Assembly (NCBI GenBank): GCA_044220955.1
Contig: JBGAQA010000020.1
Span: forward strand, 1 to 64,000
Reading direction: 5' to 3'
Source: Sandaracinaceae bacterium
GTDB lineage: Bacteria > Myxococcota_A > Polyangia > Polyangiales > Sandaracinaceae
Length of the DNA stretch: 64,000 bases
Shown: positions 1 through 62,893 of the stretch, piece after piece
Layout of the letters: each line of letters opens with the position of its first letter
How positions within the stretch are numbered: position 1 is the stretch's first letter
The notes under the pieces: generated by a model
Database searches by the model: none
What the model was told of the DNA's origin: nothing
Seen by the model: the letters and a program-made list of their open reading frames with translations, nothing else
Position numbers and translations under genes: made by a program

Positions 1-1155
1 TTGCACGCGTCCGTGGTGCTCGATGCGGCGGCTGCTCCGACCGCACGCGCAGGGCTCCTCGACGATGCGGCCGACGTCGCCCGGCTCGAGGCGCACGATG
101 GGCATCGCGCGGCCGTGCAGGTTCGTGACGACGACGTTGCCGAGCTCGCCCGGCGCACAAGGCGCTCCGTCCGCGCGCACCGTCTCGACGCACGCGTAGC
201 TCTCCGCCAGGTGCATGCGGTCCGGGTCGGCCGTGCACGAGGCGCCGTAGCGCGCGAACTCGCAACCCCCACAGCTCTGGGCCGTGCGCGCGCCGAACGT
301 CTCGGAGAGGTAACCGCGCATGCGCGGCGTGCACAGCCCTCCGGAGAATTCGAGGATCCCCGTGATGACGGGCGGCGCCTGGCCAGTCCGCCGCATGAAG
401 CGCGCGAGCAGCATCGCGTACAGCGAGTACACGGTGAGGACCACGGGCTCCGAGCTCCGGAGCTGCGCGAGGTAGCGTCCGTGGTCGACGGGCCCGATCG
501 GTCCTCCTCCCGGCCAGAACGGCGGGAGCATGTCGCGCCGATGGAAGACCGGGTTCAGGATCCGACGCTCGAGCAGCAGGAACGCCGCCGCGCGCCGCGT
601 CGCCGTGCTCGCGTCGGGAGAGAGAGGTACCAGAGAGGAGGTCTCGCCGCTCGGCAGGCAGGGCTGGCACTCGTTGGGGGTCAGGCGCGTCTGGCGGCTC
701 ATCGGCGGCACGTCCGCCAGACTCCTCGAGCGGAGGATCGACGCGTACTTCCAGGCGATGTCCGTGGCGTCCTGGACGAGCACGAGCGGCTTGCCCGTGG
801 TGCCCGACGTGTTCGAGAAGCGGAGCCACGCGTTGCGGTACGAGCGAGCGAGCTGCCGATCCGGGAAGCCGCTGCGCAGGTCGCTCTTGCTGGTGATGGG
901 CAGCCTCGCGAGCGCAGCCACGCTCGTCACGTCGCCAGGCGCGACCCCGGCCGCGTCGAGCAGGTCGCGATGGAGCGCCGTCTCGTCGTACGCGTGGGAC
1001 AGCAGAGCGCGCACGAGCGCGAGCTGGTCCGATCGCTGCGCCGCGAGCGGGGCTCGCTCCGCGGCACACATCTGCTCGTGGTAGGTCCAGCTCTTGAGGG
1101 GCGTGAGCGCCGCCGCCGCCGGCATCACGAGTTCGGACAGGACGCGTTCGCGCAT
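1..1155 (-). CDS. Phenylacetate-CoA ligase (PaaK/CapK)-like adenylate-forming enzyme, truncated by the window edge
   Basis: Not in the ORF track because no stop lies in the window. Manual minus-strand translation from ATG 1155 gives MRERVLSELV...LPITSKSDLR...NTSGTTGKP...GELGNVVVTNLHGRAMPIVRLEPGDVG...CACGR...GRVQ, which are PaaK-family motifs. Confidence 0.85.
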   Translation of the reverse strand, partial: MRERVLSELVMPAAAALTPLKSWTYHEQMCAAERAPLAAQRSDQLALVRALLSHAYDETALHRDLLDAAGVAPGDVTSVAALARLPITSKSDLRSGFPDRQLARSYRNAWLRFSNTSGTTGKPLVLVQDATDIAWKYASILRSRSLADVPPMSRQTRLTPNECQPCLPSGETSSLVPLSPDASTATRRAAAFLLLERRILNPVFHRRDMLPPFWPGGGPIGPVDHGRYLAQLRSSEPVVLTVYSLYAMLLARFMRRTGQAPPVITGILEFSGGLCTPRMRGYLSETFGARTAQSCGGCEFARYGASCTADPDRMHLAESYACVETVRADGAPCAPGELGNVVVTNLHGRAMPIVRLEPGDVGRIVEEPCACGRSSRRIEHHGRVQ

Positions 1156-1253
1156 GCCCGACACGTAGCATCCCGCCCTCTGTCGAGTGAACCGCCCCGT
1201 GAGCGGGGTAGCGCGACGCAAGTTGACGTTCGTCTCGGCTCGTCGATAGTAGG

Positions 1254-1925
1254 GTGGTGAGCGCAGCTCGACCGGCGCCATGGATCGACGAGCGCACGAG
1301 CCTGGTCGCCGTGACCGGCCTGGCCGTGCTCTGGGCGCTCGCCATCCTCGCGTTTCCGAGCGTCATCGAGTGGATGCGCGTCGATGCGGACCAGAAGTTG
1401 ACCTCGGAGGGTCCCTGCGAGTGGGCGGAGGACGCGCTGCTCGTGAGCTGCCTCGCCTTCTGGGCCGCCACCGGATGGTGGATGAAGCGCGATCCAGCGC
1501 GCCTGGCGGTGGCCCTGGCGATGACGCTCCAGGTCGCGATCGTCCTCGGTGAGGAGCTCGACTGGGGTCGCGAGCTGGGCCTGGCGGGCTTGGTCGGCGA
1601 GCGCAACCTCCGGCGCATCGGCTTCACCGAGCTCGGCGTCTCGGAGAGCACCTGCGCGGTCGTGCTGATGGGTGTGCTCGGGCTCTTCTTCGCGTGGCCG
1701 CTGGTGCCGGGCGCTCGTCCCGCGCGATGGCTCGAGCGAGTCGCGCCGCTGCGCGCGGCGCCCGGTGACGCGCTCGCCCTCTTCGCGCTCCCCCTCATCT
1801 GCCTCGTGATGGACCGGGTCGGCGCGCCGCCGTCCGTGGAGTTCGTGCAGATCTCGGGCTACCTCGTGCTCACGCTGGTCTCGCTCCGGATCGTGCTGGC
1901 CACCCGCCGCGCCAGCGACGGCTGA
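1254..1925 (+). CDS. Integral membrane protein with EELDWG motif (paralog of 2564-3205)
   Basis: About 6 hydrophobic segments; motifs SEGPCE, GEELDWGR and RNLR shared with the convergent paralog. Confidence 0.75.
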   Translation: MVSAARPAPWIDERTSLVAVTGLAVLWALAILAFPSVIEWMRVDADQKLTSEGPCEWAEDALLVSCLAFWAATGWWMKRDPARLAVALAMTLQVAIVLGEELDWGRELGLAGLVGERNLRRIGFTELGVSESTCAVVLMGVLGLFFAWPLVPGARPARWLERVAPLRAAPGDALALFALPLICLVMDRVGAPPSVEFVQISGYLVLTLVSLRIVLATRRASDG

Positions 1926-1989
1926 CTTTCCCGCGGCGGATGCCGTCGAGCCCGGGACAGGCTCGAGGCCCCGGCAATCGCCGGCGAGA

Positions 1990-2517
1990 TCAGGGCGTCT
2001 CGGCAGGCCCCGTCGGCTCCGCGTCCACCGCCGCCGCGAGCCGCGTCAGTGCCTGATCGAGATCGTGGCCGATGCGCCCGGCGAGGTTCATCAAGAGCCC
2101 GAGCCCGCCCTCGCCGAAGGACGAGCTCGAGTCGTACGACCACGTCACCTCCGTGCCTTCCTCGACGGGAGCGAGGACCACGGACAGCGTTGCCGTCTCG
2201 GTCGAGTGCGCCGGGAAGTCCACGCTCATGTCGACGCGTCGGTCCGGCTCCACGTCGACGATCGTGATGCGCGCGGTGGGCCCGTGGCACGACGCGCCCG
2301 GGCCGCTCGAGGGGCTCGAGCAGGTCCCGGTGAGGCCGCGCCACGGGCTCCACGCCTCCCAGCGCGCGAAGTCCGCGAGGTACGGGTAGAGGCGCTCGGG
2401 CGGCGCCGCGATGCGCGCCGAGCGCTCGACGTGCACGCGCGCCGGACGCGTCCACCACAGGAGCGCGGTGCCGCACGCCACCAGGACAAATCCCATCGCG
2501 AGGGTCGAGCGCTTCAC
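1990..2517 (-). CDS. SRPBCC (START/polyketide cyclase-like) family protein
   Basis: N-terminal TM, then VERSARIAAPPERLYPYLADFARWEAWSPW and C-terminal IGHDLDQALTRL. Confidence 0.85.
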   Translation of the reverse strand: MKRSTLAMGFVLVACGTALLWWTRPARVHVERSARIAAPPERLYPYLADFARWEAWSPWRGLTGTCSSPSSGPGASCHGPTARITIVDVEPDRRVDMSVDFPAHSTETATLSVVLAPVEEGTEVTWSYDSSSSFGEGGLGLLMNLAGRIGHDLDQALTRLAAAVDAEPTGPAETP

Positions 2518-2563
2518 GCGCGCGATGGTACGCGGTCCCCGTGACGTCGTCCGCTCGCTCGCC

Positions 2564-3205
2564 TCATGCCCGACGCGTGGCCCTCGCGATCCGCCACGTC
2601 GCCGCCGCGAGCACCAGGTACTCGCAGCTCTGGAGCAGCTCGAACGACGCGCGCTCGTGGAGCGCGAGCCGAAACCCGAGGAAGACCCCCATCGCGACGA
2701 CCGCCGCGATGGCGTCGGAGCGCTCCGCGCGCACGGGCGCAGCGCCCTCCCACCACGCGCGATAGCGCGCGCTCGGGACCAGGGGCGAGAGCATGAAGAC
2801 GACGAGGAACGCGACGAACGCGTCGGGGTCCATCCCGGGCGACAAGAGGCCCATCGAGCGCAGGGTCATCCTCAGGTTTCGCTGCGGAAGGACGGGTGGC
2901 AGACCGAACACCCGACCCCAGTCGAGCTCCTCGACCAGGATGAGCGCGAGCTGCGCGATCATCGCGCACGCGATGACGAGCGGACGGCGCCGGTCTCGCA
3001 CGCGCCGGGCGATACCGATCCAAGAGAGCGCGCACGCGAGCACGAGGAGGTTCTCGAAGATCTCGATGCGCCCCTCGTCGGAGAGCGCCGGCTGGAGGTC
3101 GAAGAGCCACGCCGACGACGCCGGAAAGACGAAGGTCGAGATCATCCAGAGGACGAGGGCGATCGCGACCGCGATCATGCTGGGGGCGCGCAGCAGCTTC
3201 GTCAT
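2564..3205 (-). CDS. Integral membrane protein with EELDWG motif (paralog of 1254-1925)
   Basis: Real coding part of shadow ORF 2564..7951. Starts MTKLLRAP at ATG 3205, overlapping the upstream stop (ATGA). Motifs DEGRIE, VEELDWGR, RNLR. Confidence 0.75.
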   Translation of the reverse strand: MTKLLRAPSMIAVAIALVLWMISTFVFPASSAWLFDLQPALSDEGRIEIFENLLVLACALSWIGIARRVRDRRRPLVIACAMIAQLALILVEELDWGRVFGLPPVLPQRNLRMTLRSMGLLSPGMDPDAFVAFLVVFMLSPLVPSARYRAWWEGAAPVRAERSDAIAAVVAMGVFLGFRLALHERASFELLQSCEYLVLAAATWRIARATRRA

Positions 3206-4500
3206 CGCGGAGCGATCAGCTCGAGGAGCGCGGCCCGCACCTCGCGATCGCACTCTCCTTGTCGGTCCGGGTACGCCGCGTCGAATCGCGCGAAGCGCCG
3301 GGCCCACCCCGGGTCCTCGTAGAACGCCGCGATCTGTCCGGGCGTCGGCCGCGGCTCCGCGCTCAGGCTCGGGAGCAGGCGCGCCGCGACGAATCCGTAG
3401 TAGTCGTCGGGCACCTCGTCGAGCGCGCCGACGTACACCGAGGGGACGCCGAGCTTGAGGGCGGTGAGGTGCGCGCTCGAGTTGCCGGCCGCCACGAGCT
3501 CGCAGCGCGCGGCGTCGTCCTCGAGCGGACGCGTCGCGTCGGAGACCTCGACGCCTCGCAGGTCGACGCCGCGATCCCAGCGTGGGTCGCGCATCTGGTG
3601 GTTCGGGTGGAGACGGAGCAGGAGCCGGCGCGGGCCGAGCGCCTCCCGCAGCTCGGTGATCGCGCGCGCGAGCTTCGCCGGGTCGACGAGGATCGACAGG
3701 AACACGCCCACCGTCCCGATCTCGCCGCGCAGGGGCGCCGTTCGCATGGGTCGGGCGCTTCCCTGCGCGCCGCGGAAGACGACGCGTCCGCGAACGGGTC
3801 CGGCGCGCGCGTACACGTCGCGTACGGCAGCCCCGTCGACGATGGCGAGGTCGAACGCGAGGGGCGGAGGATCCTCGGCCACGTGCCCGTGCGTCACGAA
3901 GCACGTGCGGCGGCCCGCGCACTCGGCGGCGTGCGTGAGCGCGACCGCGTAAGGGTTCGTGTCGCTCGAGACCCACACGGCGCGCGCGCTCGACCGCTCG
4001 AGGGCGGGCAGGAGCCGCTGGAAATACCCCACGGTGCTCGCGACGCGCGCGGCCACGAGGAAGTCGCCCCTGCCGGCGTACTCCGAGAGGATGCGCCACG
4101 CGCGACGATCGACAGGACGCGGGGCGGCTCCCAGGGCCTCGAGGACCGGCCTCGGGCCGAAACCGAACGTGACCGGCGCGAGCCGGAGCGCCGGATCGAG
4201 CCGGGCGAGCGAGGACAGCGCGCGCTCCTCGTTCTCGTACTGCCATGCCGCCCAGATCGGCGCGTCGCTCCTCGGGAGCCGGGTCTCGACGAAGCTCGCG
4301 GCGGCGTAGGCGGCGACGTATGCCGCTGCCGCGCTCGAGGTGCCGAGCACGCGCCAGGTGGCGAGTGCGGCGCGGATCGCGGGCGTGCGCTCGGCCTTGC
4401 GTCGGAACAGAGCACGGCGCAGCGGCTGCGAGTCCTTGTGGGCGACGATGGCACAGGCCCGCGCGAGGGCGTCGTCGACCCGGGAGGCCATCGCGCTCAC
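3202..4500 (-). CDS. Putative GT-B fold surface-glycan biosynthesis protein (capsule/sialyl-/Kdo-/glycerophosphotransferase-like)
   Basis: C-terminal motifs FVTHG, LLLRLHPNH and AGNSSAHLTALKLGVPSV resemble the HP and S(S/T)xxxxAxxxGxP motifs of CMP/CDP-sugar-using GT-B enzymes. Start is GTG 4500 or ATG 4491. Confidence 0.55.
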   Translation of the reverse strand: MSAMASRVDDALARACAIVAHKDSQPLRRALFRRKAERTPAIRAALATWRVLGTSSAAAAYVAAYAAASFVETRLPRSDAPIWAAWQYENEERALSSLARLDPALRLAPVTFGFGPRPVLEALGAAPRPVDRRAWRILSEYAGRGDFLVAARVASTVGYFQRLLPALERSSARAVWVSSDTNPYAVALTHAAECAGRRTCFVTHGHVAEDPPPLAFDLAIVDGAAVRDVYARAGPVRGRVVFRGAQGSARPMRTAPLRGEIGTVGVFLSILVDPAKLARAITELREALGPRRLLLRLHPNHQMRDPRWDRGVDLRGVEVSDATRPLEDDAARCELVAAGNSSAHLTALKLGVPSVYVGALDEVPDDYYGFVAARLLPSLSAEPRPTPGQIAAFYEDPGWARRFARFDAAYPDRQGECDREVRAALLELIAPR

Positions 4501-4509
4501 CGTACCAGA

Positions 4510-7500
4510 TCAGCGCGGCAGGGCGTCCTCGTGACGCGCGAGCGCAGGAGCGTCGGGCCCGTGACGTCCGCTCCGCATCCACGACACGAAGCTCGCCAGG
4601 ACCCGGGCCGCATCCCGGCTGCGCTCGCCCACGGCCTCTCCATCTTCGTGGTCGTCGAGACAGTGCCGGTCGATGTTCGTGCAGTCCTCGAGACGCGCGC
4701 GCACCCGACCCCCGGTGGCGATCGTCGCGTCCCACGTGACGCCGATCTCCCGGCGAGGATCGACGGTGCGCCCTGCCTCGAGGTTGGTCAGCTCCACGCG
4801 GGCGCCGCGTGACCACCGACGCCGCAGCTCCTCCCCGATGGTCAGCAGATCCGCGGCGAGCGCCGAGCGCGCACTCGCCGACCAGCGCTGGCTCGGCGCG
4901 AGCTCGAGGCGAATTGCCTCGTAGCCGAGCTCCACGGCGGAGAAGAGGTCGCGCGCGACCTCGGCCGCCCGACCGGGCGCGATCGCCAGCACGGCGGGGA
5001 CCGCCGGTCGTGCGGCGTGTGCGCGCACGGCGCTCACGTCCTCGAGATACACCTCGACCACCGCTCCGTGCCGTCCCAGGCGGGTCACGAGCTCCGCATC
5101 CAGCGCGGGCTCGTCGGGGCGCATCAGGACGCGGAGCCTGCGCCCCCGCTCGGCGGCGCAGCGCGCCGCGTTCTCGAGCTCGGCCGAGAGCTCCGCCCGC
5201 GGCAGGGGCGCGTCGCGCACCCGCAGCGCCAGCTCGACGCGCTCGCTCGAGAGCAGGAGCTCCGTCGCCTGCCGCAGCGTGTCCGCGGAGGCGGGCTGCT
5301 CGGCGGCTCCCGCGCCGATCACGACGCACGGAGTATGGGCGTCCAGGAACGACCGGAACGCGCGGACCCACGCAGCGGCGGGTCCGAGGATGGCCTCCGC
5401 AGACGCGAGGACCTGCTGCTCCGCGTCGCGATCGAGCGGGCCCCCCGCTGCCGTGGAGCGCGCCTCGCGCAGTGCGTCGAACGCCAGACGCCGCGGCAGG
5501 TCGTCGAGGCGCCGCAGCACGCGCGCGTCGGCGCGTCGCGCCTCGGGATCCTCGGCGCGCCCCCGGTGTGCCTGGACGACCGCCGCGATGGCCTCGAGCG
5601 AGGCCGTGTAGCGGCGCGCGTCGGTGAAGAAGCCCGCGGCGACGACCGCCTCGACGCGCGGGTCCGCCGACACGTCGTGCTCCACGAACGTGTAGTCGAT
5701 CTCCGGATGCGAAGGCACGCTCGCGTGCGCGCGGATCACCATCTTCGCCCCCTCGCCGCGCTGGATCATCCGCCGGTGGCTCGCGCTGGTCCCGTACGAG
5801 ACGAGCCGCGGGACGATCGGGAAGCGGACGTGGAAGTGCTCGGGGTGTCGGATCTTGAGGCGGCAGACCTCCTCGACCGACGCGATCAGGTCGTCGACGT
5901 CGGTCTCGGCGTTGGAGGCGATGAAGTACGCGTCGAGGTGGATGCGCTTCCGGGCGAGCACGCGCACGACCTCGCGAACGTGCTCGAGCCGGTAGCCCTT
6001 GCCGAGGCGCCGGAGCTCGGCCTCCGCGAACGTCTCGACGCCGATCGCGAGGTAGGCGCTCCAGCGGCGCGAGCGGTGGTCCGACACGTAGTCGCGCGAG
6101 GGGATCGGCGCGCGCGCGTCCGCGAAGCACTCGGGGACGATGGCGTCGACGATCGCCGGGTCGGGCTCCGGCAGCAGCACTCCGTCCACGCGCCGGCACA
6201 GGTCCGCGACCGACACCTGGAACGACGAGAGGCGAAACTTCGTCCCAGGCAGCGCGCGCAGGAAGCTCGACGCGCGCTCCTTGTCGCACGCGAAGTCGTC
6301 GTCCGAGATGTGGAGGCGGTGAGCGCTCGTGGGCACGTCGTCGCCGAAGAGCGCGCGGAACCGGCCTTCGTAGCGCTCGAGGAGCGCGAGCACGCCCGCC
6401 GCGCTGCGGGCCTGGTAGCTCTGTCGCCCGAGGATCGAGCAGAACGTGCACTTGTGGATGCAGCCGCGCGCGGTCGAGATCTCGACGCCGTGCACCAGGT
6501 GGCGCGGCTCCAGAAGGTCGAGATCGAGGTCCACGGCGTCGAGATCCTCGACGCTGACGGTCTCGCTCGAGCACGCCGACACGAGCGTGCGCGCGGCGCG
6601 ATCGATGGCGACGAGGCCTCGCATGGACAACAGGGCCTCGAGCTGTGCCTCGTCGAGCGCGCGGTCGATCGACGCGCCGGCCCCGAGGATCTGCGCCAGG
6701 CGCGGCACGAAGTACTCGCCGGCTCCCCTGCAGACGAACGAGACGTCCGGCAGGTGCGCGGCCGAGGCCTCCGGCGCGAGCGAGGCCATCACGCCGCCGA
6801 CGGCGACGTGCGCGCGGCACCCGAGGCGGCGAAGCGTCGCGATCAGCTCGACCACGCCCTCCCAGTAGCCCTCGAGGAGCGTGATGCAGACGAGCTCGAT
6901 CGGACCACGCTCGAGCGCGCGGTCGAGCGAGTCGAGCCCGACGTGACGGCGGGTGCGATCCGTGATGGACATCTTCACGTTCGCCAGCACGACCTCCGTG
7001 CCCGTGCCCGTCAGGGTGCTCGCCATGTGGAGCACCCCCTGCGAGAGCTCGCCGTCGTTGTGCGGCATGTCCGTGTTCATGAGCGACTCGAAGAACAGGA
7101 CACGCCGCGCGGGTGGCCCCGCCGCGCGCAGCGCCTCGAGCGTGGGCTCCGCGCGCGGGGTCGGGCCGAGCACGCGGAGCGAGCGCCCCGCGTCGGCCAG
7201 CGCGCCGAGCGCGGCGTTCACCGGATGGCGGGTGGGCTGCGCCGCGATCCACGGACCGTCGAGCGTCAGCCGCCGACCCTCGCGGACGTGCTCGGTGCCC
7301 GCGGGGCCGAGGTGCACGTCCCAGGGCACGGGGCTCTCGGGCAGCGCGGCCGCGGTCCTGAGCAGCGTGGCGACCGGAAGCGCCGCGCCGCTCCGGTCGC
7401 GAACGATCGCGCGCGTCGGCGTGCCGTGCCCCCGCCGGGTGAGGAATCGGCCGTCGGGCGTGCGGATGGAGCCGGGCGCGGAGCCGTCTGGCTCCACGAC

Positions 7501-7530
7501 CCAGAACCAGCTTCCGTCCGGCCGTCCCAT
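4510..7530 (-). CDS. B12-binding radical SAM protein with N-terminal extension and C-terminal degenerate radical-SAM-like domain
   Basis: Cobalamin-binding-like region (ELVCITLL...VAVGGVMAS...VCRGAGE), STARGCIHKCTFC (CxxxCxxC), SDDDF and IGVET...LGKG. Confidence 0.85.
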   Translation of the reverse strand: MGRPDGSWFWVVEPDGSAPGSIRTPDGRFLTRRGHGTPTRAIVRDRSGAALPVATLLRTAAALPESPVPWDVHLGPAGTEHVREGRRLTLDGPWIAAQPTRHPVNAALGALADAGRSLRVLGPTPRAEPTLEALRAAGPPARRVLFFESLMNTDMPHNDGELSQGVLHMASTLTGTGTEVVLANVKMSITDRTRRHVGLDSLDRALERGPIELVCITLLEGYWEGVVELIATLRRLGCRAHVAVGGVMASLAPEASAAHLPDVSFVCRGAGEYFVPRLAQILGAGASIDRALDEAQLEALLSMRGLVAIDRAARTLVSACSSETVSVEDLDAVDLDLDLLEPRHLVHGVEISTARGCIHKCTFCSILGRQSYQARSAAGVLALLERYEGRFRALFGDDVPTSAHRLHISDDDFACDKERASSFLRALPGTKFRLSSFQVSVADLCRRVDGVLLPEPDPAIVDAIVPECFADARAPIPSRDYVSDHRSRRWSAYLAIGVETFAEAELRRLGKGYRLEHVREVVRVLARKRIHLDAYFIASNAETDVDDLIASVEEVCRLKIRHPEHFHVRFPIVPRLVSYGTSASHRRMIQRGEGAKMVIRAHASVPSHPEIDYTFVEHDVSADPRVEAVVAAGFFTDARRYTASLEAIAAVVQAHRGRAEDPEARRADARVLRRLDDLPRRLAFDALREARSTAAGGPLDRDAEQQVLASAEAILGPAAAWVRAFRSFLDAHTPCVVIGAGAAEQPASADTLRQATELLLSSERVELALRVRDAPLPRAELSAELENAARCAAERGRRLRVLMRPDEPALDAELVTRLGRHGAVVEVYLEDVSAVRAHAARPAVPAVLAIAPGRAAEVARDLFSAVELGYEAIRLELAPSQRWSASARSALAADLLTIGEELRRRWSRGARVELTNLEAGRTVDPRREIGVTWDATIATGGRVRARLEDCTNIDRHCLDDHEDGEAVGERSRDAARVLASFVSWMRSGRHGPDAPALARHEDALPR

Positions 7531-7568
7531 CTCCGTCGAATCCTACGCCATGGCCGCGCGCCGAGCGC

Positions 7569-9047
7569 TCATCGGTGATCTTCGTCGGGAAGGACGTGGA
7601 GCCGGGTCCGCGCGTCGGGCGGCGCCGCGCGCGCCTCGGCGCGTCCCGCCGCATCGAAACCGTCGAGCGGAGCGAGCCACTCGTCCTCCGACGGCGCACG
7701 TTGCCTCGCGGCGTCCGGCAGGACGGAATACGGAGCCAGCCCCCGCGCGCCGAAGCGCTCCACGTACTCGCGCCGCAGGCCGACGCAGTGCCCGCGCGCG
7801 GCGCACGTCTTGCAGCCCTCCGGCTCGTGGCTCCGGCCCGACGCGTGCGCTGCGTCGCGCGCCTCGTTGGGGCGCCAGGCCACGACGTGCGGCACCTCGG
7901 TGACGACGCACGACGGGAACCCGCACGTGCCGGTGATCTCGAGCTGCACACCCGCGTCGTGGAGCAGGCGAGCGGCCGCCGTGAGGTGCGGGCGCGCCTC
8001 GTCGAGCGGCACCATGCGCTCGAGGAAGGCCGTGGCGTCGTAGTAGCGACCGGGCTGGCTGTAGTTCACCACCCGCACGGGGTTGCGCGGATGGCGCGTG
8101 ACGAAGTGATCGCGGACGAAGCGCGCGTGCTGCTCGAGGCTCAGGACGTTGGCCCGCTCGACGACGCAGTTCAGCGCCACGACGAGGCCCTCCGAGAGCG
8201 CCGTGTGGATGCCCTCGACCGTTCGGCTCCACGTCCCGCGCGCGCGCGTCATCCGGTCGGAGACGTCCGCGTCGGCGGAGTGAAACGACACGAGCACGGT
8301 CGCGAGGCCGCTCTCGCGCAGCGCGCGGGCGAACGTGGGGTCGCGCAGACGGATCGCGTTCGTGTCGAGGTGCACGCGCATCCCGTGCGTGAGCGTGGCG
8401 CGCGCGACGAGCTCGGGGAGGCGGCGGAAGAGCGTCGGCTCCCCGCCGCAGATCGTGAGCCTCCGGGCTCCGGTCCGTGCGAGCTCGTCGAGCCAGGTGA
8501 ACACCAGCTCGTCGGGCGGATCGGGCCAGTCGCGCCCCTCCCAGCAGAAGTGGCAGTCCTGGTTGCACCGGAACGAAGGGCGCAGGAACGCGCTGAGGCC
8601 GCTCGTCGAGTGCTCGAAGTGCCGGTAGTCCCGATCGTCGATCGCGCTGAGCGTCGCCCAGCGGTGGTGCACCGCGGCCAGCGCCGCGCCTCGCTCGACG
8701 CGCTCGGCCGCGCTCGCGCTCTCGAACCAGTCCGCGAGCCGCGCGAGCCAGCGCCGGCTGAGGGCGTGATGCGCAGGCGTCCGGCCCTCGACGTCGGGCT
8801 CGACGGTGAACGCGAGCGGGCCGGCCTGCCAGCGCGCGCCTGTCTCGACGCGCACCACGAGGCCCAGCACCGCGCCGGCCTCGCGCACGCGCAGGTGCGT
8901 GGGTCCAGGGGTCGCGATCGACACACGACGCTCGGGCTGGACCGCGGCGCCAGGAGCGTCGAGCCAGGCGCGGATAGCGTCGGCGAGCGCGGCGGCGGCC
9001 TCGTGGCGCAGCGGGCCGACGAACCCGGAGAGCTCGGTGGTCGCCAT
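7569..9047 (-). CDS. Radical SAM protein with C-terminal Cys-rich (SPASM/twitch, HxsC-like) domain
   Basis: CNQDCHFC, ICGGEP, DTNA and VSFHS; C-terminal CGFPSC and CKTCAARGHCVGLRREYVERFG. Start set at ATG 9047. Confidence 0.88.
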   Translation of the reverse strand: MATTELSGFVGPLRHEAAAALADAIRAWLDAPGAAVQPERRVSIATPGPTHLRVREAGAVLGLVVRVETGARWQAGPLAFTVEPDVEGRTPAHHALSRRWLARLADWFESASAAERVERGAALAAVHHRWATLSAIDDRDYRHFEHSTSGLSAFLRPSFRCNQDCHFCWEGRDWPDPPDELVFTWLDELARTGARRLTICGGEPTLFRRLPELVARATLTHGMRVHLDTNAIRLRDPTFARALRESGLATVLVSFHSADADVSDRMTRARGTWSRTVEGIHTALSEGLVVALNCVVERANVLSLEQHARFVRDHFVTRHPRNPVRVVNYSQPGRYYDATAFLERMVPLDEARPHLTAAARLLHDAGVQLEITGTCGFPSCVVTEVPHVVAWRPNEARDAAHASGRSHEPEGCKTCAARGHCVGLRREYVERFGARGLAPYSVLPDAARQRAPSEDEWLAPLDGFDAAGRAEARAAPPDARTRLHVLPDEDHR

Positions 9048-9132
9048 GCTCGACGATACCACGCAGGCGCCGGCAGCCCGCGCGGCGCGGGGGGACGGGA
9101 CACCCTGCCGGAGAGTGGAGTAAGAGGCTCGC

Positions 9133-10482
9133 ATGGGTGCTGCGCCGTCTCCGCCATCCCAGAGGGTCGGGCGCTCGGCGATCCTGCTCGTCGCGCTGGT
9201 CGCGGGGTGCGAGTGCGGCTCGCGCGGCCCGTCCGAGCCGGCGGGCCCGAGGGTCGCGTGGACCTACGCGCCCGCGAGCGTGGACTGGGACGTGCCCGCC
9301 GCGGTCGCCGCGTCGCCCGACGGCGTCGTGCTGCTCGCGTGGTCCTGGGCACCGGACGAGGCCGATCGCGGGAGCGCACCGCCGCGCATGCCGCGGACGG
9401 CGAGCCTGAGCCTGGTGAAGCTCGACCTCGCCGGCGATCCGGTCTGGACGCGCACGTTCGGCGGACATCCCGGAGATCTCGCGTTCGACCTGCTCGTCAC
9501 GCCTGCGGGCGAGATCGTCGTCGTGGGCGAGACGCGCGGCCTCGCGCTCGACGGGCTCGCGCCCCTCGCCGCCAGCGGTCGCGACGGCTTCGTCGCGTGG
9601 TTCGACCGCGAGGGCCGCCCGCTCCGGGTGGTGCGAGTCGGCGGGAGCGGCGACGAGCGTCTCCTCGGGCTCGCGCGGCGAGACGACGGCTCGCTCCTCG
9701 TCGCCGGGGGCACGTCGTCCTCCGACCTCGTCCCGGGCCGCGCGGTCGCGGGATCGATGGACGGCCTGCTCGTCGCCCTGGCGCCAGACGGCGACGTGCT
9801 CTGGCAGCGGGCGTTCGGCGGCGAAGGAGTCGAGATCGCCACGGCCGCGGGCGACGGCTTCGTGGGCGGGATCGCGTCGTCGAGCGCGCTGGACCTCGAC
9901 GGCGCGCGCGCGGACGGGCTCGGTCGCTTCGACACGTGGGTTGCGCGGCTCGACGCGAGCGGAGGCGCGCGCTGGCTGGAGAGCCTCGGCGGACCCGGGG
10001 ACGACTACGCGTACGATCTCGTCGCGGACGCCGACGGAATCCTGCTCGGTGGAGTGACGCAACGGGACGACCTGCTCGCGCGGGGCCTCTGGCAGTCGTT
10101 CGTGGAGCGCGTCGCGCCGGATGGCGCGCGGACGCCCGTCTGGTCCGCGTGCTGCGTGCACTACGACTACGCGGTCGCGCTCGCGCCCGCGGGCGACCGG
10201 CTCGTGATCGCGTCGTCCTTCGACGGTCCCTCGTTCGACGTCGGCGGCGTCACGCTCCGGGTGACGGCGGCAGAGGACGACGTCACGGCGTACGCCGCGG
10301 AGATCGACGCAGGCGGACGCGCGCGCTGGGCGCTGGCGCTGGGGCACGAGTCGCCGACGCGACGCGACTTCAACGTGCACGCGGTCCGCGTGGGCGGCGG
10401 CGACGTCGTCGTCGCGATGCCCTCGTGGCGCGACGGCGGATACGACGTCCGCGTCGTGCGCCTCGTGCCCCCGTCTCGTTGA
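9133..10482 (+). CDS. Putative lipoprotein with beta-propeller-like (SBBP-type) repeats
   Basis: Lipobox LVAGC; repeated units such as LVKLDLAGDPVWTRTFGG, LVALAPDGDVLWQRAFGG and VARLDASGGARWLESLGG. Confidence 0.75.
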   Translation: MGAAPSPPSQRVGRSAILLVALVAGCECGSRGPSEPAGPRVAWTYAPASVDWDVPAAVAASPDGVVLLAWSWAPDEADRGSAPPRMPRTASLSLVKLDLAGDPVWTRTFGGHPGDLAFDLLVTPAGEIVVVGETRGLALDGLAPLAASGRDGFVAWFDREGRPLRVVRVGGSGDERLLGLARRDDGSLLVAGGTSSSDLVPGRAVAGSMDGLLVALAPDGDVLWQRAFGGEGVEIATAAGDGFVGGIASSSALDLDGARADGLGRFDTWVARLDASGGARWLESLGGPGDDYAYDLVADADGILLGGVTQRDDLLARGLWQSFVERVAPDGARTPVWSACCVHYDYAVALAPAGDRLVIASSFDGPSFDVGGVTLRVTAAEDDVTAYAAEIDAGGRARWALALGHESPTRRDFNVHAVRVGGGDVVVAMPSWRDGGYDVRVVRLVPPSR

Positions 10483-10523
10483 GGACGGTTCGCCGCGCAG
10501 AGGGACGCGGGTAGAGTGGGGGG

Positions 10524-11459
10524 ATGGAGCGGGTCGGGCCCGACGAGCGCGTGGGGGGGGTGCCTCCGGAGGCCGTGCGCGCGCTGCTCGCGAGCGTCGA
10601 TGCGTGCGCCGGCCACGCAACCCACGCCTCGGACCTCGTCGACGTGCCCCTCACTGCGGAGCGCGCGCGCTGGTTCAAGCTCGACGTGTCGTTCGCCCTC
10701 ACGGCGGCCCGCCACGCGCGCTTCTCGGTCAACGACAAGGGCGAGCCGATCGCCTTCCGCGATCGCGCCGAGCGCCTGCTCCCGCGCCTCGGTCTACCGG
10801 CCGGAGCGATCCGTCGCTTCTTCGACGTCGCGGCGCCGGGGCGCGTCCAGACGACGCTCGCGGTGAAGTGGAGCGCCGCGAGAGAGGCGCCCGATCGCAT
10901 CACGCTCTATCTCGAAGAGCTCGCGCGCGATCGACACCATGCTCAGATCCGGAGGGACGTCTTCGGTCTCGGCGGCCTCGCGGCGCCTGCCGTGCCCGAC
11001 GGAGCCGTGCCCGTGGCCGTCTGCATCGACTACGCGCGCGGGGTGCCCGTGGCGTTCAAGTCCTACGACATGTTCGTGGACGGGCCGGGGGCGGCGAACC
11101 ACGCCGTGCCGCCCGCGCTCGTCGATGCCCTCGCGGCGCTTCCCGCCCATCCGGTGAGCGGCACGCGACGCTACATGCTCGCGTCGCGCACGGCCCCCGA
11201 CGGAACCGCGCTCGGGCACAAGCTGCTCTGGATCACCGAAGTGCACCGCCCCGAGCTGGGGCAGTGGGCGTGGGCCCACGTGGACGCGTGGAGAGCGAGC
11301 TGGGCGCAGCACGCTCACCCGGCCGTCGCGCGTGCGCTCGACGAGCTGCGGGCGCGATGGGCGTACGGCCCCGGCGCGTTCCTGAGCCCCGATCTCGTCT
11401 GCCTGAACGCGGACGCGTCGGGCGAGCGCGAGCTCATCGTCTACGTCTCGCTAAGGTGA
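10524..11459 (+). CDS. Hypothetical protein, possible ABBA (PT-barrel) prenyltransferase-like fold
   Basis: 311 aa soluble protein with recurring beta-hairpins ending in RITLY, FKSY, HKLLW and LIVY. The CDS is well supported but the fold call is inference. Confidence 0.55.
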   Translation: MERVGPDERVGGVPPEAVRALLASVDACAGHATHASDLVDVPLTAERARWFKLDVSFALTAARHARFSVNDKGEPIAFRDRAERLLPRLGLPAGAIRRFFDVAAPGRVQTTLAVKWSAAREAPDRITLYLEELARDRHHAQIRRDVFGLGGLAAPAVPDGAVPVAVCIDYARGVPVAFKSYDMFVDGPGAANHAVPPALVDALAALPAHPVSGTRRYMLASRTAPDGTALGHKLLWITEVHRPELGQWAWAHVDAWRASWAQHAHPAVARALDELRARWAYGPGAFLSPDLVCLNADASGERELIVYVSLR

Positions 11460-11490
11460 GCAGCGGGATGCGCTACCGTCGCGTCGAGCG

Positions 11491-12504
11491 ATGACACGGA
11501 GGCCAGCCGCGAAGCTCGAGTGGCTGGAGGGCATGCGCGGTCTGGCCGCGCTCTGGGTGGCGTGCCACCACGGCGTGCTGGCGGTTCGCCGCCCGCTCGA
11601 CCTGCGCGACGCTCCCCACGCGCTCGCGAACGGCTCGCTGGGGGTCGACTTCTTCTTCGTCCTCTCCGGCTTCATCATCGCCTACTCGAGCGAGCACCTC
11701 GCGCGCGCGGGCGGGACGCTCCGCGACTACGCGTTGGCTCGTGCGGTCCGCGTGTACGTGCCCTATCTCCCGGTCGGCCTGCTCATGCTCGCGATCTACT
11801 GGGGGCTGCGGCTGTTCGCGTCTTCGAGCCCCCACACCAGCACGCTCTCGTCGATCACGCTGCTCCCGGCCGAGGACCCGCCGGCCCTCGTCGTCGCGTG
11901 GACGCTCGTCCACGAGGTCCTCTTCTACGCGGTCTTCTCGCTCTACTTCGTCCATCGTGGCGTGCTCTGGCTGACCCTCTGCGCCTGGGCGCTGGGGATC
12001 GCCTTCGTGGCGCTCGCTGGGGTGCCGCTCACGCACTTCGCGGAGTACCTCCTTTCGCCGGTGAACCTGGGCTTCCTCGCGGGCGTCCTGGCGTTCCAGG
12101 TGTCGAAGCGGTGGCGCCCGCCTCGCCTCGTGTCGCCGGTGCTCGGCGCCGCGGGCATCGTCGCGGTCGCGATCGAGGCCGGCCATGCAGGACCGGATCG
12201 CGTGATCGTGACGCTCGGCTTCGTGGCGCTGGTGATGGCCGTCGCGGTCGCGAGCTCCCCGCGCCGCGAGCCGCTGCCGCTGCTCGGGGCCCTCGGTGCC
12301 GCGTCGTACTCGGTGTACCTGGTCCACAAGCCCGTCGAGCTGCTCGTGGCTGGGCTGATCGCGCCGGCCTTCCGAGGCAACTGGGCGGGCTTCGTTCTGG
12401 TGGTGGTCGTGTCCGTCCTGGTGGGCCTGGCCTACTACCGGTTCTACGAGCGCCCCGCGCTCGTCCGCGCGCGTGCGTGGGTGAGCGGCGTCTCGGGCGC
12501 GTGA
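11491..12504 (+). CDS. Acyltransferase 3 (OafA-like) membrane O-acyltransferase
   Basis: LEGMRGLAALWV..HH, GVDFFFVLSGFII, WTLVHEVLFY, SYSVYLVH, YRFYERP. Confidence 0.93.
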   Translation: MTRRPAAKLEWLEGMRGLAALWVACHHGVLAVRRPLDLRDAPHALANGSLGVDFFFVLSGFIIAYSSEHLARAGGTLRDYALARAVRVYVPYLPVGLLMLAIYWGLRLFASSSPHTSTLSSITLLPAEDPPALVVAWTLVHEVLFYAVFSLYFVHRGVLWLTLCAWALGIAFVALAGVPLTHFAEYLLSPVNLGFLAGVLAFQVSKRWRPPRLVSPVLGAAGIVAVAIEAGHAGPDRVIVTLGFVALVMAVAVASSPRREPLPLLGALGAASYSVYLVHKPVELLVAGLIAPAFRGNWAGFVLVVVVSVLVGLAYYRFYERPALVRARAWVSGVSGA

Positions 12505-12539
12505 GGCTCCGAGCCGAGCGCCCGGACGCCGTCAGCGCA

Positions 12540-14402
12540 TCAGGGCCAGGCGCGCAAGCCGAGGTCGGGCGCCGGGAGCGCGCCGTGGACGAGCTCGTCG
12601 GCCCATGCTGCGGCCGATGCCGTCTGCGCCCGGCGGCGCGCGCCCTCGGCGAGGCGTGCTCGCAGCGCGTCGTCCTCGTGCATCCGGCGGATCGCGTCGG
12701 CCATGCCCTCGGCGTCGTCCGGGTCGACGAGGATCGAGTCGACGCCGTCGCGCAGGTGATCGAGCACCATCGGCACGCGCGTCGCGATCAAAGGCCGACC
12801 GAACGCGAGGGCGAGCGCCATCACCGAGCCGCCGGCGCAGACGTTCCGGTCCCAGACGATCGGCAGCACCACGAATCGCGCGCGGGCGAGCTCGTCCATG
12901 AAGTCGTCGAACGCGACGAGGCCGAGCGGCTCGAGCCCCCCGATCCGCGCCACCTCGACCTCGCGGGCGTGCGCGACGCGGATCGGCGGGCACGCGGAGC
13001 CGAGCCGCCGGGCCGCGCCCTCGAGCACGCCCCAGGCGCGGGCGTGGTTTCCGCCCGCGAAGCCGGCGGGGCCCGTCTCGCGCGGCGCGATCGGACCGAC
13101 GGGATAGGGCCGGAACGTCAGGCGGTCGAGCGGTACGCCGCTGCGTGAGTAGAGGTGCGGAAACGAGGGGTAGGCGCTCACGACCTCGAGCCGCTCGTCC
13201 GGCCAGCCGTCGCGCGACCGCGAAACGAGCCGCTCGCGTCCCTCCAGCATGTGGAAGTCACCGACGATCACGCGGGCGCTCGGCGAGAGCGCCTTCGCGT
13301 CGAGCACCTCGAAGGCCTGCGCATAGCCCCACGCCAGCACGACGTCGTCGTCGGAGCGAACCTCGTCGCCGCTCCGCACGTCGCAGCCGAGGGCCACGAG
13401 CCGCGCGGCCATCGGGGGAACGCCGAAGCGCGCGATCACCTCGTCGCGGGTTCGGCAGATCCGGACGCGGGCGCCGAGGGCGAGGCCACGCCAGCCGCGG
13501 CGCGGTCCGAGCTCGCGCGCTCCGCGAGGCGCGAGCCCGCTCGCGAGGCCGCCGCATCGCGTGCGCAACGCGCAGGGCTCGCACGCGGGCGAGTGCGACG
13601 CCGGCCCGAGCGCCTCCCCACGCCCCCCCATGCAGAACGGGAGGTCGCGCGCCGTCGCGCCCATGCACTCGAGCAGCCCCCCGAGCGCGCGCAGACCGCC
13701 GGCTCGCTCGATGGCTTGCGGCAGGGCGGGGCTCTCCCGAGCGAGCGTCCCCGCCTCGTAGCGCGGCACGCGGACGGCGCGGCGGGCGGTGTGCACGAGC
13801 ATCGCATCGATGGCCACGGGCGCGCCGCCGGGCGCGGGTCCGTGCAGCCCGAAGCCCACGAAGTCGGCCCGCTCGAAGCGCGCCGTCGTGGCCACGACCC
13901 GCTCGCGCGTGTCGGCGTCGAGCGCGCCCGACTCGATCACGCGCACGTCGCTCGCGACGCGATCGAGCACGTCGAGGAGCGCCGCGAGCGTGCCCGCCAC
14001 GTCGGCATCGACGTGCAGTCGGGCGCGCGACGGGAGCCCGCTCTCTCGGCAGGCGTGCAGCGAGGCCACGCGTGCGCGCCAGGTGCCTCTGCCTTCGCGC
14101 GCGTCGTGGCGCGCCTCGTCGCCGTGGAGATCCACCTCGATGCCCGCGACGCCGATCTCGCGCAGCCGGCTCGCCAGCGCGCGGGTCACGCGCTCGTCCC
14201 GTACCCGCACTCGGGGTGGGACGCCTCTGCGCGCGAGATCTCCGACGATCGCGGGCAGGTCCGGGTGCTGGAGCGCGTGCGTCAGCACGATCTCCCGGCC
14301 TCGCGCCGCGTCGAGTCGTGCCGCGACGTCGGCGCGCGAGCTCGGGCGAGGAGGCGGACCGGCATCGGCCAGCGCGATCTGCGCAGCCTCGCCCGCCCTC
14401 AC
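12540..14402 (-). CDS. Fusion of a degenerate radical-SAM/SPASM-like domain and a GT4-like glycosyltransferase domain
   Basis: GTG 14402 overlaps the gpx stop (GTGA). The N-half resembles an rSAM barrel (IEVDLHG..RHD...GRGTW) with no CxxxCxxC, followed by LPFC...CEPCALRTRCGGL. The C-terminus ALAFGRPLIATR...LRDGVDSILVDPDDAEGMADAI is GT4-like. Confidence 0.75.
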   Translation of the reverse strand: MRAGEAAQIALADAGPPPRPSSRADVAARLDAARGREIVLTHALQHPDLPAIVGDLARRGVPPRVRVRDERVTRALASRLREIGVAGIEVDLHGDEARHDAREGRGTWRARVASLHACRESGLPSRARLHVDADVAGTLAALLDVLDRVASDVRVIESGALDADTRERVVATTARFERADFVGFGLHGPAPGGAPVAIDAMLVHTARRAVRVPRYEAGTLARESPALPQAIERAGGLRALGGLLECMGATARDLPFCMGGRGEALGPASHSPACEPCALRTRCGGLASGLAPRGARELGPRRGWRGLALGARVRICRTRDEVIARFGVPPMAARLVALGCDVRSGDEVRSDDDVVLAWGYAQAFEVLDAKALSPSARVIVGDFHMLEGRERLVSRSRDGWPDERLEVVSAYPSFPHLYSRSGVPLDRLTFRPYPVGPIAPRETGPAGFAGGNHARAWGVLEGAARRLGSACPPIRVAHAREVEVARIGGLEPLGLVAFDDFMDELARARFVVLPIVWDRNVCAGGSVMALALAFGRPLIATRVPMVLDHLRDGVDSILVDPDDAEGMADAIRRMHEDDALRARLAEGARRRAQTASAAAWADELVHGALPAPDLGLRAWP

Positions 14403-14899
14403 ACGGCGCCCGGCTCGAGGGCGGCCTCGATCGCCGCCGTGACCGCTGCGCTCGTCGGGTCCTGGGTCGGAGCGAAGCGCGCGAGGACGGCGCCATCCCG
14501 GCCGACCAGGAACTTCCCGAAGTTCCAGCTCACCTCGCCGGGTCCCTCCGGTCTCGTCGGCGCGGCGGTGAGGAAGGCGTAGAGCGGGTGCGCCGTGGGG
14601 CCGTTCACGTGGACCTTGGAGAACATCGGAAACGTCACGTCGTACTTCGTCGAGCAGAACGTCTTGATCTGCTCCTCGGTGCCCGGCTCCTGTGCGCCGA
14701 ACTGGTTGCAGGGGAAGCCCAGCACGACGAGGCCGCGCCCCTCGTAGCGCCGGTGCAGCGCCTCGAGCTTGGCGTACTGGGGCGTGAGGCCGCAGCGGCT
14801 GGCGACGTTGACGATCAGGAGCGCCTTGCCCCGGTAGCCGGCGAACGAGCAGGTCGCCCCGTCGATCGTGTTGGCCTCGAAGTCGTGCACGGTGGTCAT
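14399..14899 (-). CDS. gpx: Glutathione peroxidase
   Basis: VNVASRCGLTPQY, GFPCNQFGAQEPG, WNFGKFLV; start ATG 14899. Confidence 0.96.
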   Translation of the reverse strand: MTTVHDFEANTIDGATCSFAGYRGKALLIVNVASRCGLTPQYAKLEALHRRYEGRGLVVLGFPCNQFGAQEPGTEEQIKTFCSTKYDVTFPMFSKVHVNGPTAHPLYAFLTAAPTRPEGPGEVSWNFGKFLVGRDGAVLARFAPTQDPTSAAVTAAIEAALEPGAV

Positions 14900-15552: not shown

Positions 15553-16388
15553 GCGGCGAGGACGATCCGCTCACGGACGACGCGATCACCTCGCGCTTTC
15601 GCGTCTGGCAGCGCGTGCGCGGGCATCGATACTCGCTCGACGACGTCGTCGTGGCGTGGGAGGCCGCGCGCGCGCGGCCGGAGGCGCGGCGCGTGATCGA
15701 CCTGGGCACGGGGATCGGATCGGTCGCGCTGATGCTCGCGCACGCGCTCCCCGAGTCGACGCTCTGCGCGGTCGAGGCGCAGGAGGTCTCGTTCGCCCTG
15801 CTCGCGCGCAACGTCGCGCGCAACGCCCTCGGCGATCGCATCGCGATCCACCTCGGCGATCTGCGGGAGGTCGACGCGTACGCGCACGGTGAGCGCTTCG
15901 AGCTCGTGACGGGCACGCCGCCCTACTTCCCGCGCGGGGCGGTCACGCTCCCGCCCGACTCGCAGCGCGCGCACGCGCGGGTCGAGCTGCGCGGCGGCGT
16001 CGAGGACTACTTGCGCGCTGCATCACGGCTCGTCACCGAGACCGGCTGCGTCGTCGTGTGCGCCGATGCGCGCCGGCCGGAGCGCGTGATCGAGGGCGCG
16101 AGAGAGGTCGGCCTCGCGCCCCGGACGCGCCGCGACGTCGTGCCGCGCGAGGGCAAGGGCCCGCTCGTCGGCGTCTGGACGCTCACTTCACAGGAGCGCG
16201 CGCCCGGCAGGTCCCGGACCGAAGCGCTCACGCCGGCGCAGGGTGTGCTCGAACGCTTGCCCGATCTCGTCGCCCGCGACGCCGCCGGCGCCCGGACGCC
16301 GATCCAGCACGAGCTGCGCGGCTTCTTCGGGCTCACGATCGGGCCCGAGGACGCGAGCCCCGGCGGCAGGACGGGCTCGAAGCTTTGA
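15549..16388 (+). CDS. tRNA1(Val) A37 N6-methyltransferase (TrmN6/YfiC)-like SAM methyltransferase
   Basis: GTG 15549 overlaps the upstream stop; QRVRGHRYSLDD, DLGTGIGSV, GTPPYF, ARVELRG. Confidence 0.85.
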   Translation: MSGEDDPLTDDAITSRFRVWQRVRGHRYSLDDVVVAWEAARARPEARRVIDLGTGIGSVALMLAHALPESTLCAVEAQEVSFALLARNVARNALGDRIAIHLGDLREVDAYAHGERFELVTGTPPYFPRGAVTLPPDSQRAHARVELRGGVEDYLRAASRLVTETGCVVVCADARRPERVIEGAREVGLAPRTRRDVVPREGKGPLVGVWTLTSQERAPGRSRTEALTPAQGVLERLPDLVARDAAGARTPIQHELRGFFGLTIGPEDASPGGRTGSKL

Positions 16389-16419
16389 CCGCGCACGCGC
16401 GCCGTGGGACAGGGCCGCC

Positions 16420-17664: not shown

Positions 17665-17686
17665 TTGCGCGTCTTGCCGCCTGCCC

Positions 17687-27138: not shown

Positions 27139-27162
27139 GCCTTCTCGGCTCGCCGCTGCGGA

Positions 27163-36537: not shown

Positions 36538-36557
36538 GCATGGAAGAGGAGACCGCC

Positions 36558-62886: not shown

Positions 62887-62893
62887 CGTGTCG

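Follow-up and report, generated by a model that had tools for sequence, protein, structure and literature searches.

Described His-Xaa-Ser systems and the locus studied

The closest described relative of the system treated here is the HXS anti-phage system (HxsABCD). In E. coli, according to the available part of Li et al. 2026 (PMC13128918), SHRSS of the substrate undergoes a +8 Da (+C/-4H-type) change, and HxsC forms a complex with HxsD. In the available part of a further paper (PMC9062424), HxsB and HxsC are mentioned merely as putative maturases. A type-4 His-Xaa-Ser (HxS) set is represented in NCBIfam by the models HxsA4 (NF038313), HxsB (TIGR03978), HxsD (TIGR03976), HxsD-like (NF038315) and HxsC4 (NF038332). 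Our literature search, which covered articles without their supplements, found no paper on HxsA4-type systems or on the sugar-acid cassette described below, and the source data of the HXS study may list myxobacterial HxsA. Here we analyzed a window of 64,000 nucleotides (nt) from a Sandaracinaceae bacterium, in which eleven genes (g1 to g11), among them the radical S-adenosylmethionine (rSAM) genes g6 and g7, fill positions 1-14402. On balance, we read these 14 kb as a variable island whose rSAM genes form a detached tailoring arm of a myxobacterial type-4 His-Xaa-Ser system, with the core of that system located on another contig of the same genome, C225.

The genome resembles the type-4 set in that HxsA4, HxsB, HxsD and HxsD-like genes on C225 all score above their NCBIfam cut-offs, and in that relatives of g6 and g7 flank such loci in other genomes. 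It differs in that no window gene passes any Hxs cut-off, and in that the tandem of a B12-binding domain and two rSAM domains (B12-rSAM-rSAM), the enzyme with the ABBA fold, the pseudo-rSAM fused to a type 4 glycosyltransferase (GT4) domain and the cassette for a cytidine monophosphate (CMP)-activated sugar acid fit no NCBIfam model and sit on a different contig. Shared with the HXS anti-phage system, in so far as the available part of its description extends, are HxsB, HxsD, HxsC-like rSAMs and an HxS-repeat substrate. The HxsA described there carries a signal peptide and a peptidoglycan-binding domain, whereas the HxsA4 found here has neither and scores 16.6 against the TIGR03979 cut-off of 121.65. 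That system is also a four-gene D-B-C-A locus with HxsC over the cut-off, whereas here the genes lie on several contigs, HxsC stays below the cut-off, and B12, prenyltransferase and glycosyltransferase partners are present.

An initial annotation of this DNA had proposed an undescribed pathway for the radical tailoring of a surface glycan, glycolipid or glycopeptide. Its undescribed character, the glycosylation part and the glycopeptide option are retained in our analysis, whereas the rSAM genes were found to track HxsA4, HxsB and HxsD and not glycan loci.

The Hxs core and its precursor

The HxsA4 precursor gene (C225:41453-41839) scores 119.7 bits against a cut-off of 55, and on the same contig HxsB (490 bits; cut-off 370), HxsD (54.8; 50) and the HxsD-like protein (58.8; 41) were identified. 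The initial annotation had reported the absence of a precursor peptide; this holds for the 64-kb window, in which no HxsA-type precursor is encoded, but not for the genome. The precursor is 128 amino acids (aa) long and consists of a leader followed by HCS-HAS-(HGS)12-HGQW, with 14 mostly neutral HxS triplets. A terminal tryptophan was observed in all twelve HxsA4 precursors examined, and none of them has a hydrophobic N-terminus (hydropathy at most 0.72). Precursors with 49 uninterrupted HxS triplets were found at L025:16723-17448, L033:18292-19008 and L040:14980-15705, compared with 10-16 triplets elsewhere.

Three more rSAM genes, one PapB-like and two HxsC-like, follow HxsA4 on C225. With the further HxsC-like paralogs on C243, C263, C276 and in the window, the HxsC-like paralogs of this genome number at least eight, spread over five contigs. 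The HxsC4 cut-off of 500 bits is not reached in this genome, the best score being 144.5.

An unannotated 176-aa gene with a twin-arginine-like N-terminus lies upstream of HxsD (C225:44284-44814; L147:6287-6814, minus strand), and similar genes of family F16 precede HxsD in L025, L033, L038 and L040. Its product is a possible export or anchoring partner of HxsA4. Another Hxs-type satellite was observed on C276 of the same genome (G000) at 15622-18563 and 25428-28139, comprising an HxsC-like rSAM and a 514-aa protein with two pseudo-rSAM repeats, with HExxH-like and cupin-like genes 7 kb away.

Domain anatomy and genomic company of g6

The gene g6 (4510-7530, minus strand) was initially annotated as a B12 radical SAM protein, and the B12-binding domain (PF02310; 34.7 bits, cut-off 32.1) and the rSAM domain (PF04055; CxxxCxxC at C357-C361-C364) are both present. 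The third domain, which had been missed, is a second rSAM domain that is degenerate in the window copy and 31% identical to the rSAM adjoining HxsA4 on C225. Of 31 full-length orthologs, 23 keep the CxxxCxxC of this domain and eight, including that of the window, have lost it; seven of these eight have a full-size ABBA-like neighbour. In a g6 tree of 24 rows (13 others, near-duplicates or truncated sequences, were left out) the state of this domain needs three changes, and a single clade of degenerate forms was rejected (17 rows; approximately unbiased test, p-AU 2e-13); the second rSAM domain thus appears to have died about three times independently.

In common with the class B (cobalamin-dependent) rSAM methyltransferases (TIGR03975, PhpK and HpnJ/BchE-type), g6 has a B12-binding domain with a CxxxCxxC-bearing rSAM domain after it. 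It stands apart from them through its second rSAM domain and an N-terminal domain of 140 aa. Against the named class B rSAM models of NCBIfam it scores at most 32 bits (cut-offs 251-600), and residues 1-140 gave no usable Atlas match. The B12-rSAM-rSAM tandem architecture is uncatalogued in NCBIfam. The protein is predicted to be a methyl or C1 transferase of the HxsA4 system.

Full-length relatives of g6 with 41-59% identity were found in most of 33 GTDB loci and in three of 40 relatives. Counts over the 33 loci rest on codon-model gene calls, contig ends truncate many of the loci, and the g6 gene of L033 was missed by the gene caller. The most frequent neighbours are PapB-like rSAMs (19 loci), HxsC-like rSAMs (15) and ABBA-like proteins (nine), followed by beta-hydroxylase-like (seven), MiaB-like (five) and halogenase-like proteins (four, and also in genome G010). 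An HxsA4-type (HxS)n peptide lies within 10 kb of the g6 ortholog in seven of the 33 loci, and HxsB and HxsD, which score over their cut-offs at g6 loci, in four; 26 of the 33 genomes have HxsB above cut-off. In G010 an entire Hxs system, including an alpha-ketoglutarate (aKG)-HExxH enzyme, surrounds g6, and in G204 a distant g6 paralog sits inside an HxsD-HxsB-HxsA4 cluster.

Two observations concern individual g6 loci. The Hxs cluster of G010 encodes a 1,487-aa MXAN_6577-like cysteine-rich protein and an OmpA-domain protein (L013:4977-9440). A 34-kb contig (L068, L069; G304:C56) carries about a dozen rSAM genes, three of which are g6-like multi-domain fusions.

The HxsC-like enzyme g7 and co-occurrence with the Hxs system

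The product of g7 (7569-9047, minus strand; frame open to an ATG at 9134) is an HxsC-like rSAM with an N-terminal extension and five C-terminal cysteines. Its initial annotation as an rSAM-SPASM protein stands as to the rSAM domain but not as to a canonical two-cluster SPASM domain: the five cysteines are not the full SPASM cysteine set, and a search for the Pfam SPASM domain gave no match at E<=0.05. Two HxsC-like paralogs on C225 itself score 65-67 bits against the HxsC model TIGR03977.

Co-occurrence was examined in 401 genomes of the phylum, 26 of which carry g6 (21 close and five distant orthologs) and 141 of which carry HxsB, the overlap being read from the two lists. HxsB is present in 24 of the 26 genomes with g6 compared with 117 of the 375 without it (Fisher p 5e-10, uncorrected for kinship), and for the close orthologs alone in 19 of 21 (p 1e-7, likewise uncorrected). 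One of the exceptions, G384, lacks HxsB but carries an HxsD-like gene at a contig edge. Relatives of g7 at E<=1e-22, a threshold that also counts HxsC-like paralogs, were found in 15 of 25 genomes with g6, in 17 of 28 with HxsB and without g6, and in none of 27 with neither, these genomes being hand-picked from the 401 and 23 of the 27 controls being negative by absence from the HxsB list.

Several points weigh against assigning g6 and g7 to the Hxs system. All links between the window enzymes and HxsA4 are genomic. HxsB occurs in 27 of 41 relatives near this lineage, and co-presence alone is therefore weak evidence in it; eight of the 27 HxsB-negative controls belong to one family, six of the seven HxsA4-linked g6 loci seem to represent a single lineage, and in G194 g6 is present although both HxsB and an HxsD-like gene are missing. 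The scores of g7 are far below the cut-offs of HxsC (68.2 against 267.9 bits) and HxsC4 (59.5 against 500), the deep branches in the tree of HxsC-like paralogs are weakly supported, and close g7 orthologs occur in eight genomes, mostly isolated among unrelated genes. Even so, from genomic linkage and co-occurrence we consider it likely that g6 and g7 act on HxsA4 together with the C225 core.

The same evidence bears on an explanation in which all the genes together tailor a surface glycan or glycolipid by radical chemistry, the association with HxsB being due to common descent. Three of the eleven genes are of glycosyltransferase or glycan-acyltransferase types, a sugar cassette lies on the left, and the g5 loci L088, L093 and L094 contain other rSAM genes. 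However, the rSAMs encoded at the glycan-type g5 loci fall into a clade apart from g7 (support 100/99), the third domain of g6, g7 and the N-terminus of g11 all resemble rSAMs of Hxs loci, and g6 orthologs lie within 10 kb of HxsA4, HxsB or HxsD in several lineages, so that we hold a glycan-only pathway to be improbable.

The prenyltransferase-fold protein g9 and the fusion protein g11

The possible prenyltransferase (PT) barrel suspected earlier in g9 (10524-11459, plus strand) was recovered as an ABBA fold in the AlphaFold model (mean predicted local distance difference test score, pLDDT, 93), which contains a ten-stranded PT-barrel (Foldseek E 5e-9) and has no signal or transmembrane (TM) segment. 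All of the top 19 VIA matches are ABBA enzymes (Z 13.7-19.8; root-mean-square deviation 3.6-4.7 A over 252-293 residues) and the next match falls to Z 8.7. With the described ABBA prenyltransferases, namely the DMATS-type enzymes MpnD, CymD, TleC and IptA, the cyanobactin enzymes PatF/PagF, DciF and FunA, g9 shares the fold; it is unlike them in its 7-18% identity and in having no Pfam or NCBIfam match. Conserved Arg, Lys and Tyr residues lie on its barrel strands, and K52, R66, K115, Y129, K179, Y181, R222 and K233, kept in all alignment rows, are candidates for the basic and Tyr residues that bind the diphosphate.

The best matches of g9 are prenyltransferases of free tryptophan, indole and histidine, and g5 matches natural-product GT1 enzymes (Z ~15), which would suit an island that makes a diffusible small molecule unrelated to HxsA4, for instance an indole or imidazole carrying prenyl and sugar groups, for which g1 would activate an acid. 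Such a product is highly improbable, as the window has no scaffold synthase, gene content varies among same-genus neighbours, and the Hxs linkage of g6 and g7 would be left unexplained.

The initial description of g11 (12540-14402, minus strand; start overlapping the glutathione peroxidase stop by 4 nt) as a pseudo-rSAM-GT4 fusion was borne out, as it has a GT4 C-terminus and an HxsC-like, rSAM-like N-terminus without CxxxCxxC. The dead domain keeps the auxiliary cysteines 257, 274, 277 and 283, as in g7. The g11 protein heads a family of fusions in which the N-terminal CxxxCxxC is kept in eight of 83 long representatives.

A g9 profile matched seven of the 401 phylum genomes, all with HxsB, and a g11 profile, with two candidates scored per genome, matched six, five of which have both g6 and HxsB. 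At nine loci g6 has neighbours from more distant g9-like families (profile matches: F25-F8 with 98% probability; g9-F8 with 66%, E 6e-5). On the opposing side, six other genomes with close g9 homologs have no g6, g11 genes stand alone amid unrelated ones, one family accounts for four of the five other g11 genomes, and G239 has g11 without HxsB, g6 or an HxsD-like gene. We slightly favour an assignment of g9 and g11, too, to the tailoring of the HxsA4 product.

The putative glycosyltransferase g5 and the proposed sugar-acid cassette

The product of g5 (3202-4491, minus strand) was guessed to be a GT-B enzyme, and its AlphaFold model (pLDDT 92) shows the GT-B fold. It has no sequence-family match and no sequence relative in the PDB. 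H295-P296 and D219-G220 are invariant, and R-[LF]-H-P-N occurs in all 14 homologs. According to the available part of PMC2169525, the HP motif of bacterial sialyltransferases binds CMP-Neu5Ac. The bacterial CMP-sugar-acid transferases (GT38, GT52 and GT80) share with g5 the GT-B fold, the HP motif and a cytidylyltransferase neighbour. Unlike in those families the D/E-D/E-G motif is incomplete, as D219-G220 alone is invariant and a hydrophobic residue precedes it, and the cassette uses HpcH aldolase, SIS and SerA-like genes. The enzyme is predicted to transfer a CMP-activated sugar acid (ulosonate).

Of 12 metagenome loci with g5, 11 also encode a cytidylyltransferase (the remaining one lies on a contig of 2.4 kb), as does the g5 locus of G008. 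These loci usually also carry HpcH aldolase, Gfo/Idh/MocA, SIS and SerA-like genes in their own conserved order. In G005, a genome of the same genus, the cassette follows the pair of EELDWG membrane genes. For the window, an independently assembled contig from run X2 places G005-like SIS, two short-chain dehydrogenase/reductase (SDR), cytidylyltransferase and SerA-like genes 3.4-7.0 kb to the left of base 1, so the suggestion that the cluster continues beyond the left edge proved right; the assembly itself, 88% complete, yielded none of the cassette genes. From general enzyme chemistry, the product of the cassette is predicted to be a CMP-activated ulosonic acid. In two metagenome contigs of 32-37% GC (L091, L094) the g5-cytidylyltransferase cassette was observed with carbamoyltransferase, DegT-like and rSAM genes, and the cassette is therefore not confined to high-GC myxobacteria.

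Homologs of g5 are rare, with three in 32 family genomes and one in 80 chosen genomes (G458), and all four genomes have HxsA4. Homologs of the EELDWG type occur beside g5 in G005 (two copies), L083 and G458 (E 9e-9). In G458, which belongs to another family, g6, an ABBA-like gene, g5, an EEIHWG homolog, the cassette and g7 lie within about 24 kb. The cassette and g6 are thus side by side in two unrelated lineages, and the cassette is more often found without g6.

These distributions are relevant to an explanation by two independent modules in one island, in which g6 and g7 (perhaps with g9 and g11) tailor HxsA4 while g5, the cassette, g2, g4, g10 and g1 put an acylated sugar acid on a surface glycan or glycolipid. 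The cassette keeps its own order in the 11 metagenome loci and G008, a search of 31 of the 32 GTDB g6 genomes other than that of L014 found g5 in none, and enzymes of the OafA and PaaK/CapK-like types are characteristic of glycan loci. Against it, g7, g6, g5 and g4 form one co-oriented run with successive gaps of 38, 18 and -4 nt, and both genes are rare (g6 in 26 of 401 genomes, g5 in four) yet co-located in G458, which neither the g6 tree (p-AU 1e-4) nor the g5 tree (p-AU 1e-3) unites with the window. The g6 grouping tested was named after seeing a tree, and the branches of G458 are long. We regard two separate modules as rather less probable than a single tailoring system, but as the most serious of the alternatives.

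Several observations count against placing g5 in the HxsA4 system. The best structural matches of g5 are UDP-GlcNAc 2-epimerases/NeuC (Z 16-17), ahead of polysialyltransferase (Z 14), and g5 could therefore be a precursor-forming enzyme. No g6 was seen in the 12 metagenome g5 loci and that of G008, viewed to 10 kb on each side. Most g6 carriers lack g5, given its single occurrence in the 80 chosen genomes, and the two metagenome loci of 32-37% GC resemble glycan loci. An action of the g5 cassette on the same HxsA4 product is accordingly a possibility that we lean slightly against.

A proposed tailoring scheme

Under the reading as a detached tailoring arm, HxsB and HxsD with the HxsC-like enzymes, g7 included, would act in the cytoplasm, crosslinking or oxidising the HGS repeats. 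The role of g6 would be to add methyl or C1 groups through B12 and its first rSAM domain, which would fit the +C/-4H-type change of E. coli HxsA, and its dead second rSAM domain may serve as a docking module. Prenylation by g9 would take place on an aromatic residue, most plausibly the terminal Trp of HxsA4, while the dead HxsC-like domain of g11 may bring its GT4 domain to the same substrate. The left cassette would supply a CMP-activated sugar acid for transfer by g5, possibly to Ser or hydroxylated His; g10 would acylate the sugar, and g2, g4 and g8 may handle the product at the envelope.

A full version of this scheme, in which HxsA4 (HGS)n-Trp becomes a radical-crosslinked, methylated, Trp-prenylated and sugar-acid-glycosylated envelope polymer and strains swap tailoring genes by means of dead HxsC/HxsB-like docking domains, is speculative and unlikely to hold in every part. 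If true, swappable tailoring would diversify an anti-phage barrier combinatorially, in an antigen-like manner. Systems with HxsB are present in 141 of the 401 sampled genomes of the phylum, yet our literature search found no paper on the type-4 form. The locus offers concrete enzymes and one short precursor: a B12-rSAM-rSAM tandem, an ABBA family unannotated at the sequence level and a GT-B family tied to a CMP-sugar-acid pathway, each of which is a target for discovery even if the glycosylation cassette proves separate.

Gene content and conservation of the island

The window is the first 64 kb of the 89-kb contig C122, base 1 being the contig end, in an assembly of 7.5 Mb (72% GC, 88% complete). 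In a tree, the labels of the nearest homologs point to Sandaracinaceae (Myxococcota). The gene content listed in the initial annotation was confirmed by gene calls, Pfam and NCBIfam matches and predicted models, all eleven genes being real, with GC at third codon positions (GC3) of 0.89-0.93 and gaps of -4 to 89 nt. Long alternative open reading frames (e.g. 2564-7951, 5017-7578 and 7575-10514) were rejected as shadow frames of high-GC DNA. The X2 contig (23,966 nt) independently covers window positions 1-14723 with 113 differences and four gaps and reaches 9,247 nt further left, so the arrangement is real and no assembly chimera. No other contig of the assembly matched the left end.

At the left edge, g1 (1-1164, minus strand; full length 498 aa) encodes a PaaK/CapK-like adenylate-forming enzyme cut by the contig end (best NCBIfam E 5e-29, under every cut-off). 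The paralogous EELDWG membrane proteins, recognized as such from the outset, are g2 (1254-1925, plus strand) and g4 (2564-3205, minus strand; start overlapping the g5 stop by 4 nt), with about five TM segments each; the Atlas matches of g4 are unnamed clusters. An SRPBCC/START-like protein with a hydrophobic N-terminal segment is encoded by g3 (1990-2517, minus strand; PF10604 E 3e-17), a beta-propeller lipoprotein with an LVAGC lipobox and a weak SBBP-type match by g8 (9133-10482, plus strand), and an OafA/Acyl_transf_3 membrane acyltransferase by g10 (11491-12504, plus strand; PF01757 E 3e-34). Pfam or NCBIfam matches were obtained for g3 (SRPBCC), g6 (B12-binding and rSAM), g7 (rSAM), g10 (OafA) and g11 (GT4 and weak rSAM), with a weak match for g8 and no match for g2, g4, g5 and g9. 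The right border is a glutathione peroxidase gene (14399-14899, minus strand), the first of a housekeeping block common to G003.

Conserved synteny of the set across Myxococcota, suggested as a check, was rejected: the eleven genes are not conserved as a unit and gene content varies even between same-genus neighbours. G005 alone shares seven genes in order (g9-g8-g7-g6-g5-g4-g2). In G003, also of the same genus, g6 and g7 occupy the same chromosomal site beside the glutathione peroxidase block with a different accessory set, namely a PapB-like rSAM, an Asp/Asn beta-hydroxylase-like protein, a MiaB-like rSAM, another HxsC-like rSAM and a flavin halogenase-like protein. Among the other fetched loci g8 was found in G005 only, and g1, g3 and g10 have no homolog in any; the absence of a link between g1, g3, g8 and g10 and Hxs loci speaks against the inclusion of these four genes in the Hxs system. 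As an Hxs partner, g1, which has 51 homologs, received no support (none in 31 family genomes and none in 40 chosen genomes, the latter searched without a known positive).

A flavin-dependent halogenase-like gene (PF04820; 21186-22466, minus strand) lies 6.7 kb to the right of the island and was left out as a member, being about 30% identical to the g6-linked ones and located beyond housekeeping genes. Further into the window we observed a sulfatase-LamG protein gene (24595-27138, plus strand), three tandem sulfotransferase genes (29882-33161, minus strand) and TadE/TadG-like pilus-assembly genes (34806-37538, plus strand; weak PF13400). Finally, a VapBC-like pair consisting of a small gene and a PIN-domain gene (PF01850) was found at 62668-63277 on the plus strand, and a second such pair lies just past the window, near 66.6-67.3 kb of C122.

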